Shown: piece by piece, positions 35,055 to 54,854 of the stretch
How the letters are laid out: every line of letters begins with the position of its first letter
Numbering within the stretch: the stretch's first letter is position 1
Assembly: GCA_046539325.1 (NCBI GenBank)
Contig: JBKHHD010000002.1
Location: 53,425-117,424 of the forward strand
From: Candidatus Aenigmatarchaeota archaeon
GTDB lineage: Archaea > Aenigmatarchaeota > Aenigmatarchaeia > PWEA01
Direction of reading: 5' to 3'
DNA: 64,000 nt
Notes under the pieces: model-generated
The model's database searches: none
What the model saw: only the letters and a program-made list of their open reading frames with translations
What the model was told of the DNA's origin: nothing
Made by a program: the position numbers and the translations under genes

Positions 35055-35255
35055 GCCGGGGTAGCGAAGCCAGGTCCAACGCGCCGGATTTGAGAACGGA
35101 TCTATTGACGAGAGGATGATATAACTGTTTCAAGAGATCCGGTGGGCCGCGTAAGGTCCTGTATCTGTGGAAGTCCACGTGGGTTCAAAAGAGAACGCTT
35201 TGGAAGTGAAAACACCTTTTCCAAAGGGTTTCTGAAAGTCCCACCCCCGGCGCCA
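35055..35255 (+). tRNA. tRNA-Ser(TGA) with three introns (35095-35136, 35154-35171, 35190-35238), CCA encoded
   Basis: CCGGA-TT-TGA-G..A-TCCGG; BHB motifs at anticodon, variable arm and T-loop. Confidence 0.9.
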
Positions 35256-36613: not shown

Positions 36614-37396
36614 ATGGAATTTGAAAAGATTGAGGAGGACGACAAGAAGCTTAAATTTGTTACAAAGGATACAAATCCAGCTATGATGAACGCTTTGAGA
36701 AGGATCTCGATGAACTACATTCCTGTGCTTGCAATAGAGGACGTCGGAGTAAAGGAAAACAGTTCGCCGATATTCGACGAAGTTATAGCCCAGAGGCTGG
36801 GGCAGGTACCGCTTGTCTTTGATCCAGACAAGTTTACGTTGAAGGGAGAATGCGACTGTGAAGACGGCTGTCCTAACTGTGAGGTTGACTTCACGTTTGA
36901 AGGCGAAGGACTTGGAAGGCTTTACTCGAAGGACCTCGTCTGTGAGACGGGCGATATCGAGGTACTATATGACGAGATACCTATAACAGAGATGGATGAA
37001 AATCAGAGGGTCGAGCTTGAAGCAACCGCAGTATTATCGAAGGGAAAAGATCACTCGAAACATCAGGCAGCTATTTCCTCGTACCAGTACTACCCTATAA
37101 TCGATATAGACAACGATGAGCTCACGAAAGAAGAAAAGGGTCGCTGCGTCGAGGTGTGCCCAAAGGATGTTTTTGAGCTCGATGGCGGCGACCTGAAGGT
37201 TTCAGAGGAAAAGAAATGTACTGTATGCAAAGAATGCGTCAACGAAGTGGATACAGGCGTAGTAGTTACAGGCGACGAGGAGAAGTTCATATTCACCATA
37301 GAGTCTACCTGTTCACTAAGCCCCCAAGAAATAATTGAGAAGGCCGCTGACATACTTGAGAAGAAGTCCGAGAAGGTAGTCGAAAAGTTAAGCTAG
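36614..37396 (+). CDS. rpoD: RNA polymerase subunit D (Rpo3) with ferredoxin-like insert
   Basis: NALRR, CDCEDGCPNC, CPK..CTVCKEC. Confidence 0.96.
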   Translation: MEFEKIEEDDKKLKFVTKDTNPAMMNALRRISMNYIPVLAIEDVGVKENSSPIFDEVIAQRLGQVPLVFDPDKFTLKGECDCEDGCPNCEVDFTFEGEGLGRLYSKDLVCETGDIEVLYDEIPITEMDENQRVELEATAVLSKGKDHSKHQAAISSYQYYPIIDIDNDELTKEEKGRCVEVCPKDVFELDGGDLKVSEEKKCTVCKECVNEVDTGVVVTGDEEKFIFTIESTCSLSPQEIIEKAADILEKKSEKVVEKLS

Positions 37397-37538
37397 CGGG
37401 GGTAACCAAGCGGTCAAGGTAAAGATACGACTAAAGGTGCAGGACTTAAGCTCTCAGCTTAAGTATTGAGGCCCATTGGGCGATGATAAGAAATCCTGTG
37501 GCTTAGTGCCTTCGTCGGTTCGAATCCGGCCCCCCGCA
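37396..37538 (+). tRNA. tRNA-Leu(TAA) with D-loop (37418-37434) and 37/38 (37451-37492) introns
   Basis: GCGGGGG/CCCCCGC acceptor, CAGGA-CT-TAA-G..A-TCCTG, BHB motifs. Confidence 0.9.
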
Positions 37539-40899: not shown

Positions 40900-41019
40900 G
40901 GGTCCGTAGCTCAGCCTGGCAGAGCACTGGGCTTTTAACTTAATATGTTAAAAGAGCTAGACGTTATGTCGATGATGAAAGAAACCCAGGAGTCGCGGGT
41001 TCAAATCCCGTCGGACCCA
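40900..41019 (+). tRNA. tRNA-Lys(TTT) with 37/38 intron (40938-40983)
   Basis: CTGGG-CT-TTT-A..A-CCCAG. Confidence 0.92.
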
Positions 41020-54637: not shown

Positions 54638-54854
54638 GCCGGTGTGGCCGAGTCAGGCTCAAGGCGGTGGATTCGAGTCTGGATGTGTTGAGCAAACGCG
54701 ATGAAAGAGAAACATCCACTGGGCGTTAAGGACAAGTACGTAGGCCTTTGCCTACGTCGGTCGACTAGGCCCGCGCAGGTTCAAAAGAAAACCCTTTCGA
54801 AAAGTGTTTTCATTCCCAAAGAAAGGTTTTCGGAAAATCCTGCCGCCGGCGCCA
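54638..54854 (+). tRNA. tRNA-Ser(CGA) with three introns (54678-54713, ~54730-54767, 54786-54837), CCA encoded
   Basis: GCCGGTG/CGCCGGC acceptor, GTGGA-TT-CGA-G..A-TCCAC. Confidence 0.88.

Follow-up and report, generated by a model that had tools for sequence, protein, structure and literature searches.

A putative half-size box C/D methylation guide inside the anticodon-loop intron of an archaeal tRNA-Ser(CGA) gene

Why archaeal transfer RNA (tRNA) genes keep introns is an old open question, and the only accepted functional case is the intron of tRNA-Trp, which carries a methylation guide. The question is raised anew by the tRNA-Ser(CGA) gene found in a 64,000-nt stretch of DNA (the window, in what follows) from Candidatus Aenigmatarchaeota archaeon, a member of the DPANN archaea whose assembly amounts to 715 kb in 10 contigs and is 91% complete. 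This gene (54638–54854, + strand) has three introns and an encoded CCA, and the 36-nt intron at its canonical 37/38 site (54678–54713, +) contains seven bases complementary to the anticodon arm of the very tRNA that it interrupts. Could this intron direct the 2'-O-methylation of U39 (Um39) of its own host? Comparison of this intron with its relatives makes it quite probable that it is a minimal box C/D-type methylation guide with a single kink-turn, placed inside its own target and working as an Um39 guide on the precursor.

The guide-like unit of the tRNA-Ser(CGA) intron

The unit begins with the guide TGGATGT (54680–54686, +), whose bases are counted from N8 to N2 upstream from the D'-like box, N5 being A54683. 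An unpaired spacer base, G (N1; 54687, +), separates it from the D'-like box TTGA (54688–54691, +), which is followed by a short hairpin GC/AAAC/GC (GCAAACGC; 54692–54699, +), the presumptive C-stem of a kink-turn, and by the C'-like box (54700–54706, +). The latter consists of the predicted bulge GAT (54700–54702) and of GAAA (54703–54706), in which the GA would form sheared pairs with the GA of the D'-like box and the AA would pair with its TT. An earlier note, made from the letters of the window, had described this arrangement, and all the letters and coordinates that it gave for the intron were recovered on re-reading the sequence.

The target of the guide is AC/ATCCA (54712–54718, +), made up of the last two bases of the intron and tRNA positions 38–42, with the 3' splice site between AC and ATCCA. 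Guide and target form seven Watson-Crick pairs across this site without any mismatch. Guide bases N2 and N3 take the intron bases i-2 and i-1 as partners, so that only the precursor could serve as substrate, and A54683, which stands fifth in the upstream direction from TTGA, is paired to U39 (54715). Duplexes that span exon-intron junctions are reportedly formed by the Trp intron as well.

The same layout is seen in the paralogous tRNA-Ser(TGA) gene (35055–35255, +), whose 42-nt intron (35095–35136, +) carries the guide CGGATCT (35097–35103), TTGA (35105–35108) and GATGA (35115–35119), the target being AGATCCG (35135–35141, +) with U39 at 35138. Guide and target thus differ together between the two genes (CGGATCT/AGATCCG versus TGGATGT/ACATCCA), the internal covariation to which the earlier note had drawn attention.

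In terms of architecture, the intron has one box motif and one guide, and departs from the bipartite two-guide layout in which two motifs lie about 12 nt apart. At the level of sequence it does contain an internal D'/C' motif that could fold into a kink-turn or K-loop. The series TTGA, hairpin and GATGA fits a standard kink-turn, with the hairpin as C-stem, a GAU bulge, tandem sheared G-A pairs and then the non-canonical stem, and the division into GAT and GAAA made in the earlier note agrees with this parse (a 3-base bulge, then the sheared GA).

Recurrence of the unit and covariation in relatives

Since ARAGORN with one intron allowed mis-assigned many multi-intron tRNAs, the anticodon arms were parsed by rule instead, and all 19 anticodon-loop introns identified in this genome could be parsed. 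An arm was scored as positive when a YTGA box had GATGA nearby and the bases upstream paired in such a way that base 5 faced position 34 or 39. Eight of the 19 introns satisfied this scoring for unit and duplex. When the introns were shuffled 2000 times, the mean was 0.0015 and the maximum 1, and for the box pair by itself the expectation is 0.26 arms. When introns were exchanged between the 19 tRNAs, 0.73 arms on average and 5 at most were positive, a count that is in part to be expected because part of the target moves with the intron and several stems share GGA. A chance origin of the unit with its duplex is excluded.

In three of these eight arms, Ser(CGA), Ser(TGA) and Thr(TGT), base 5 lies opposite U39. 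The fourth, that of tRNA-Tyr (G000:C3:60548-60691, −; G000 being the present genome), has a reversed unit in which a C-like box, the guide, a D-like box and a closing stem succeed each other, and base 5 lies opposite C39. The remaining four have the layout guide/TTGA/hairpin/GATGA with base 5 opposite position 34, and belong to tRNA-Leu(TAA) (37396–37538 of the window), tRNA-Leu(CAA) (G000:C2:24600-24800, −), tRNA-Met (G000:C3:32387-32516) and tRNA-Trp (G000:C1:116084-116240, −). According to Breuer et al. 2021 (PMC7994747), Pyrococcus has four C/D small RNAs (sRNAs), the Trp intron among them, that are directed at position 34 in tRNA-Leu(CAA), Leu(UAA), Met and Trp. It is in exactly these four tRNAs that the present genome has its position-34 units, which is the strongest single argument for the units being methylation guides.

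The other 11 introns, including the 13-nt intron of Ser(GGA), have no YTGA/GATGA unit as scored. One ambiguous case is Lys(TTT) (40900–41019 of the window), in which a perfect ATGATGA box is accompanied by 8 nt complementary to the anticodon loop; no clear D'-like box is seen in the expected register, where TAGA or CTAG stands. A genome-wide scan for exact 7-mer complements beside a box pair returned 18 matches, six of them in tRNA introns (Ser-TGA, Leu-TAA, Ser-CGA, Leu-CAA, Met and Thr-TGT) and the others scattered over coding or leader sequence; the match at C1:9649, upstream of a coding region, is not a tRNA. No classical two-guide sRNA was found in the genome with a strict pattern. The Rfam Pyrococcus C/D model gave nothing above 13 bits here, which is uninformative, since none of the 14 control genomes is recognised by it either.

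For each tRNA, BLAST in as many as 40 relatives, together with pattern and covariance-model scans, provided the orthologs, and 22 arms of Ser(CGA), Ser(TGA) and Thr(TGT) were aligned. Five long or odd arms (G005, G008, G269, G346 and the Ser(TGA) arm of G012) were kept out of the alignment; by eye the first four agree with it and the Ser(TGA) arm of G012 lacks the guide. Across the 22 arms the guide helix is 97.4% paired, with four of its seven pairs changed on both sides. Especially telling is the pair that guide base 3 forms with the final base of the intron (N3:i-1), as it is UA in 9 arms, CG in 6, GC in 5, AU in 1 and unpaired in 1; since all four Watson-Crick types occur at this position, the pairing really crosses the splice site, which bears out the duplex proposed in the earlier note.

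Taken together, guide duplex and kink-turn are 93.6% paired with seven of 11 pairs changed on both sides, and none of 500 column shuffles reaches the observed pairing or covariation score, a count that overstates independence because the aligned sequences are related. Free of that assumption are the four pair types at one position and a control in which the partner was slid by 1–3 columns, whereupon the pairing drops from 93.6% to 27–60%. Base 5 stands opposite position 39 in all 22 aligned arms, and again in further arms of other lineages, with one exception shifted by a base; the register in which the earlier note had set the fifth base against U39 was thus upheld. The spacer N1 faces i-3 unpaired in 14 of the 15 arms of one set, the exception being a T-A in G041, and is unpaired in 8 of the 10 arms of a second set, where one further arm has a T-G wobble and the C-G of the G008 row comes from a wrongly scored box.

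Orthologs of the tRNA-Ser(CGA) gene occur in seven other genomes, so that eight genomes provide seven distinct arms (those of G004 and G007 are the same). All seven pairs are present in G000, G003, G006 and G041, the last a member of the Nanohalarchaeota with another anticodon stem (ACGGA/TCCGT) and another last intron base, whose guide ACGGATAT forms a perfect 8-bp duplex with ATATCCGT and again places base 5 opposite U39. For Ser(TGA) the guide is fully paired in 11 of 13 orthologs, the pairing in G008 and G346 having been read by eye from the sequence; in G001 guide and intron base change together (CGGATTT versus AAATCCG), and likewise in G346. Matching guides with other anticodon stems were also found in G346 and G012, and the Ser(TGA) introns of G012 and G033 are without a position-39 guide. 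The longer Ser(TGA) introns of other families (L044, L101/L119, L121, L013 of G012, G269, G346 and G033) have a conserved module with ATGGCTTGACTC in common; in G269 and G346 it is accompanied by the position-39 guide, in G012 and G033 it is not.

All eight Thr(TGT) arms are fully paired, that of G010 through a different stem (GCTGG/CCAGC) and the guide CTGGTTT against AAACCAG, with G as base 5 opposite C39. In tRNA-Tyr the six genus-level orthologs (L075–L079 among them) all keep (T)CGGTAT, one base and (T/A)TGA, with base 5 opposite C39 and a pairing that spans the 3' splice site; the unit is not present in six orthologs from other families.

The kink-turn is conserved in a different manner. 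The spacer between the boxes differs in sequence and length in nearly every ortholog, and its ends always pair flush against both boxes; in the 22 arms the two end pairs are 100% paired and both are changed on both sides. GATGA is invariant in this alignment, as is the GA of the D'-like box, whose first two positions vary (TT, CT, AT, TC, TG). Variants of GATGA found elsewhere, AATGA and AGTGA, retain only the (R)UGA core. Among the Thr(TGT) orthologs, changes in the second base of the D'-like box are matched by changes in the base that follows GATGA (U-A, C-G, G-C), as the 3b-3n pair of a kink-turn would require; in Ser(CGA) this pair is not always formed, and over all arms the column is 75% paired. 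The 8-bp closing stem of the Tyr unit adjoins its boxes, one of them (G/A)ATGA, in the same flush manner. A parse of GATGA as the last five bases of RUGAUGA, which would leave no bulge, was rejected because of the flush hairpins, the AATGA and AGTGA variants and the covariation of the following base with the D'-like box.

A covariance model built from the 22 arms was run on 22 genomes of the window's own order and matched 11 of them, namely all nine of the window's family, with 2–3 units per genome, together with G010 and G012; none of the eight genomes of family f4 was matched. In the phylum, a narrow Ser-specific pattern hit 12 of 371 genomes, against none for a reversed control pattern. Ten of these hits are real, those in G143 and G323 not being tRNAs, and eight of the ten fall in the window's family, whose ninth genome, G005, escapes the pattern because its spacer is too long. 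Among 61 relatives of the Nanohalarchaeota genome the model matches three under stricter filters, at E up to 0.01, and a pattern scan of named public genomes found the same intron almost only in metagenome-assembled genomes of Candidatus Aenigmatarchaeota. Many of the scanned genomes are incomplete. The Ser(CGA) unit is patchy in distribution but present in two DPANN phyla, Aenigmatarchaeota and Nanohalarchaeota. Guide and kink-turn units also lie ahead of the 3' halves of a tRNA-Ser and a tRNA-Thr (L133, G380:C50:682-740; L135, G012:C49:863-920), whose 5' halves cannot be recognised immediately upstream; they may represent additional introns or split tRNA genes.

Two folds of one strand and the weighing of alternatives

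The strand that would be methylated is also needed for splicing. In the splicing fold the anticodon stem is combined with the central helix, of 4 bp, that belongs to the bulge-helix-bulge motif (positions 32–35 with i-6 to i-3) and is formed in this gene by 54672–54675 and 54708–54711 (+). This fold is 93.9% paired in the alignment, with compensatory changes and a score that none of 500 shuffles reaches. The central helix, taken alone, is 86.4% paired, also with compensatory changes, as exemplified by C32 with G at i-3 in G008; in the present genome G35 faces A54708, a mismatch. The outer helix beside the 5' bulge, as read from the sequences, has 1–2 bp and adjoins the stem of the kink-turn, on which it would be stacked.

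Guide duplex and splicing fold occupy the same 3' strand; therefore the precursor would alternate between a methylation fold and a splicing fold, or else the guide would act on another molecule. Energies of the forced structures, proteins ignored, are −13.0 kcal/mol for the splicing fold and −7.9 for the guide fold in Ser(CGA), −14.4 and −15.7 in Ser(TGA), and −18.2 and −13.5 in Thr(TGT). The minimum-free-energy fold of the Ser(CGA) arm is not unusual (z = −1.57) and displays neither the splicing motif nor the guide duplex.

The proteins that a guide would require are encoded in the genome, all with scores far above the Pfam cut-off: fibrillarin (C2:22464-23108, 273 bits) and, adjacent to it, Nop5 (C2:23119-23733, 202 bits), and L7Ae (C1:74075-74344, 107 bits). 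A plausible course of events can be drawn from these elements. TTGA and GATGA, joined by the short hairpin, would fold into a kink-turn with a C-stem, a GAU bulge, tandem sheared G-A pairs and two U-A pairs, to which L7Ae would bind, recruiting Nop5 and fibrillarin. The seven bases just upstream would pair with the last two intron bases and positions 38–42, bringing U39 opposite the fifth base from the box, where fibrillarin would add the 2'-O-methyl group. As the duplex depends on bases of the intron and is in competition with both anticodon stem and splicing motif, methylation would have to precede splicing and take place on the unspliced precursor, either in cis or between two precursors. 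The splicing endonuclease is predicted from a single open reading frame of 389 aa with two PF01974 domains (G000:C6:26737-27564, +), of interest in itself given the many non-canonical and relaxed splice sites of this genome.

Several observations weigh against a working guide in Ser(CGA). Terminal boxes C (RUGAUGA) and D (CUGA), which in archaeal C/D sRNAs make up a kink-turn that the RNA ends close, are missing: the 36-nt intron and the adjoining exon bases contain neither a box C-like sequence upstream of the guide nor a box D downstream of the C'-like box. The duplex has only 7 bp, guide duplexes of archaea being usually about 10–12 nt long, and in predicted energy the forced guide duplex is inferior to the fold with the anticodon stem. 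Some orthologs pair imperfectly, with C opposite A42 in G004/G007 and in G008 and two mismatches out of seven in G001; in the Ser(CGA) gene of G012 the guide is kept and the C'-like box is degenerate. The register has a single exception, the Thr(TGT) of G392 (Nanohalarchaeota), in which an extra base between duplex and box places U39 opposite base 6. An engineered box C/D ribonucleoprotein (RNP) with a single site was active in vitro, and its site specificity was lost (Hardin and Batey 2006, PMC1635284).

To these must be added a second element of the Trp intron, seen in this genome and in the orthologs L088–L094, which is complementary to the last two intron bases and positions 38–42 (GGATGT against ACATCC, or CAGGTTT against AAACCTG) and, in G002 and G006, covaries with the anticodon stem. 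Its first base comes 7 nt after GATGA, at the place of a D guide, and it is followed by a conserved YGGC...GCCR hairpin and AGGTGA, with no D box. Its covariation means that pairing to the 38–42 strand can be selected without an adjacent box.

This last point, together with the retained guide of G012 beside a degenerate C'-like box, speaks for the alternative that the unit is a splicing or folding device, a reading founded on the very short outer helix and its presumed stacking on the kink-turn stem. L7Ae, bound to the kink-turn, would lend rigidity to this helix in a relaxed bulge-helix-bulge motif, and the copy of the anticodon-stem strand would hold the 3' strand for as long as the precursor is not ready, so as to time or proofread splicing without any methyl transfer. 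Such a role would suit a splicing fold conserved as strongly as the guide duplex and an outer helix of 1–2 bp that adjoins the kink-turn stem. It offers no account of why base 5 always faces position 39 or 34, nor of why the position-34 units sit in exactly the four tRNAs guided by sRNAs in Pyrococcus, and it leaves more than half of the anticodon-loop introns (11 of 19) without the device. It is moreover compatible with guiding. As a replacement for the guide reading we hold it unlikely. That the unit is a neutral relic, whose likeness of guide to stem was inherited through duplication of an anticodon arm or the spread of a mobile intron rather than selected, might be suspected from the guide being nearly a copy of positions 28–31 and their neighbours, from the resemblance of TTGA to U33 plus the UGA anticodon of Ser(TGA), and from other intron families that are repeated in many tRNAs of this genome. 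The covariation of the duplex makes this very improbable, for four of the seven pairs are changed on both sides, including the pair with the intron base, which has no counterpart in the anticodon stem; the unit is furthermore kept from Aenigmatarchaeota to Nanohalarchaeota with fully diverged spacers. Scarcely credible is an action in trans on some other RNA such as ribosomal RNA (rRNA), with the match to its own precursor incidental: excised archaeal tRNA introns can be stable and the RNP of the Trp intron acts in trans in vitro, as stated in PMC7994747 and PMC4090602, but the guide changes with its own host tRNA in every lineage examined, which a fixed external target would not produce. The reading of the unit as a guide for U39 of its own precursor is supported by these comparisons.

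The remaining parts of the gene agree with its assignment. Once its introns are removed in silico, ARAGORN calls a tRNA-Ser(cga) starting at 54638 whichever 3–7 loop bases of the variable arm are kept, with the anticodon CGA at 54674–54676 (+); the unspliced gene is reported neither by ARAGORN without its intron mode nor by Rfam at the gathering score. The 37/38 intron rests on the rule-parsed arm, whose anticodon stem and central helix covary in the alignment. The loop of the variable arm contains the second intron, of about 40 nt and with approximate ends (54725–54768, +), where the G008 ortholog has a 4-nt loop and ARAGORN accepts any remainder of 3–7 nt. The third intron lies in the T-loop near position 59/60 (54786–54837, +) and has ends that are ambiguous inside an A run; it was recognised by reading the sequence and from similar sequence in other tRNA genes. 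It belongs to a repeated family of introns starting with GAACC or GAGCC followed by TTTTT, which occupies sites in the D-loop, the anticodon loop and the T-loop in at least eight tRNA genes here and also in relatives, which suggests that introns spread between tRNA genes. Elsewhere in the window, the rRNA leader between tRNA-His and the 16S rRNA gene (885–967) contains a hairpin followed by CTGA...GATGA (about 885–915) and then the box AATGATGA with CTGA 20 nt later (about 936–967), elements that could be box C/D-like units of the pre-rRNA leader.

Meaning of the units and relation to known intron-borne guides

If the eight units are viewed together, the balance tips towards a DPANN lineage that has moved much of the ribose methylation of its anticodon arms into introns of the very tRNAs to be modified. 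The box C/D guides there would be natural and half-size, with one kink-turn and one guide of 7–9 nt; their aim would be position 34 in Leu(CAA), Leu(UAA), Met and Trp, and position 39 in Ser(CGA), Ser(TGA), Thr(TGT) and Tyr. The stem of the kink-turn may at the same time serve the splicing motif as its outer helix and so couple methylation to splicing. Were this true, these introns would have a reason to persist, and one kink-turn would suffice for site-specific guidance when guide and target share one molecule. Eight self-targeting-looking introns out of 19, and a unit in two phyla, would turn one curiosity into a system. The Ser(CGA) intron would moreover offer a natural substrate of 36 nt for learning how a single-kink-turn RNP achieves site specificity, and it allows the order in which methylation and splicing take place to be tested directly. 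In practical terms, genes of this kind are missed by tRNA finders.

The search of full texts for a prior description returned only two cases, that of Trp and that of Nanoarchaeum equitans Met. Neither guides in Ser, Thr, Tyr or Leu introns nor natural single-kink-turn intron guides were described in the texts covered, the primary Trp papers and the supplements lying outside its reach. The Trp guide of Clouet d'Orval et al. 2001 and Singh et al. 2004 is taken here as cited in PMC7994747, PMC4090602 and PMC11408192. It was called 'a unique example' (Yoshihisa 2014, PMC4090602), and in its accessible text a review of 2024 (PMC11408192) still gives only Trp as an example.

The free-standing C/D sRNAs of Pyrococcus correspond to the position-34 units in both the tRNAs and the position aimed at, but here the guides are half-size and lie within the introns of their targets, and the finding in Ser concerns position 39. 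The engineered 'hemi' box C/D RNPs described in PMC1635284 resemble the present units in having one box motif and one guide. They are synthetic and not site-specific, whereas the natural units have a fixed spacing, which argues that the site matters.

In N. equitans, the 66-nt intron that interrupts elongator tRNA-Met contains a putative C/D sRNA, where previously only Trp had been known (Randau 2012, PMC3491384). It shares with the present case a DPANN host and an intron-borne C/D-like RNA in a tRNA other than Trp, and the tRNA-Met of this genome also has a position-34 unit. The RNA of N. equitans is described there as a stable excised RNA with a variant box C and a consensus box D, for which the accessible text of PMC3491384 gives no target in cis; neither introns of Ser, Thr or Tyr nor a position-39 guide are reported there.

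The closest parallel is the guide of the euryarchaeal pre-tRNA-Trp intron (Pyrococcus sR50; Haloferax volcanii), which in Haloferax directs Cm34 and Um39, the 2'-O-methylated C34 and U39 (PMC7994747). Like the putative guide of Ser(CGA), this guide lies in the 37/38 intron of its own target, is directed at position 39, acts on the unspliced precursor and requires a fold that excludes the splicing fold. The two differ in lineage, the present one being DPANN, and in host, which is Trp in the known case and here Ser and, by layout, also Thr, Tyr, Leu and Met. They differ in size as well, with 36 nt here against a median of 65 nt for Trp introns (PMC4090602), and in composition, the Trp intron having boxes C, D', C' and D and two guides, for C34 and U39, whereas that of Ser(CGA) has one kink-turn and one guide, for position 39 only. 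Since it would work like the pre-tRNA-Trp guide but lacks two defining features of a full box C/D sRNA, we class the Ser(CGA) unit as a natural, half-size and intron-borne variant of these guides.

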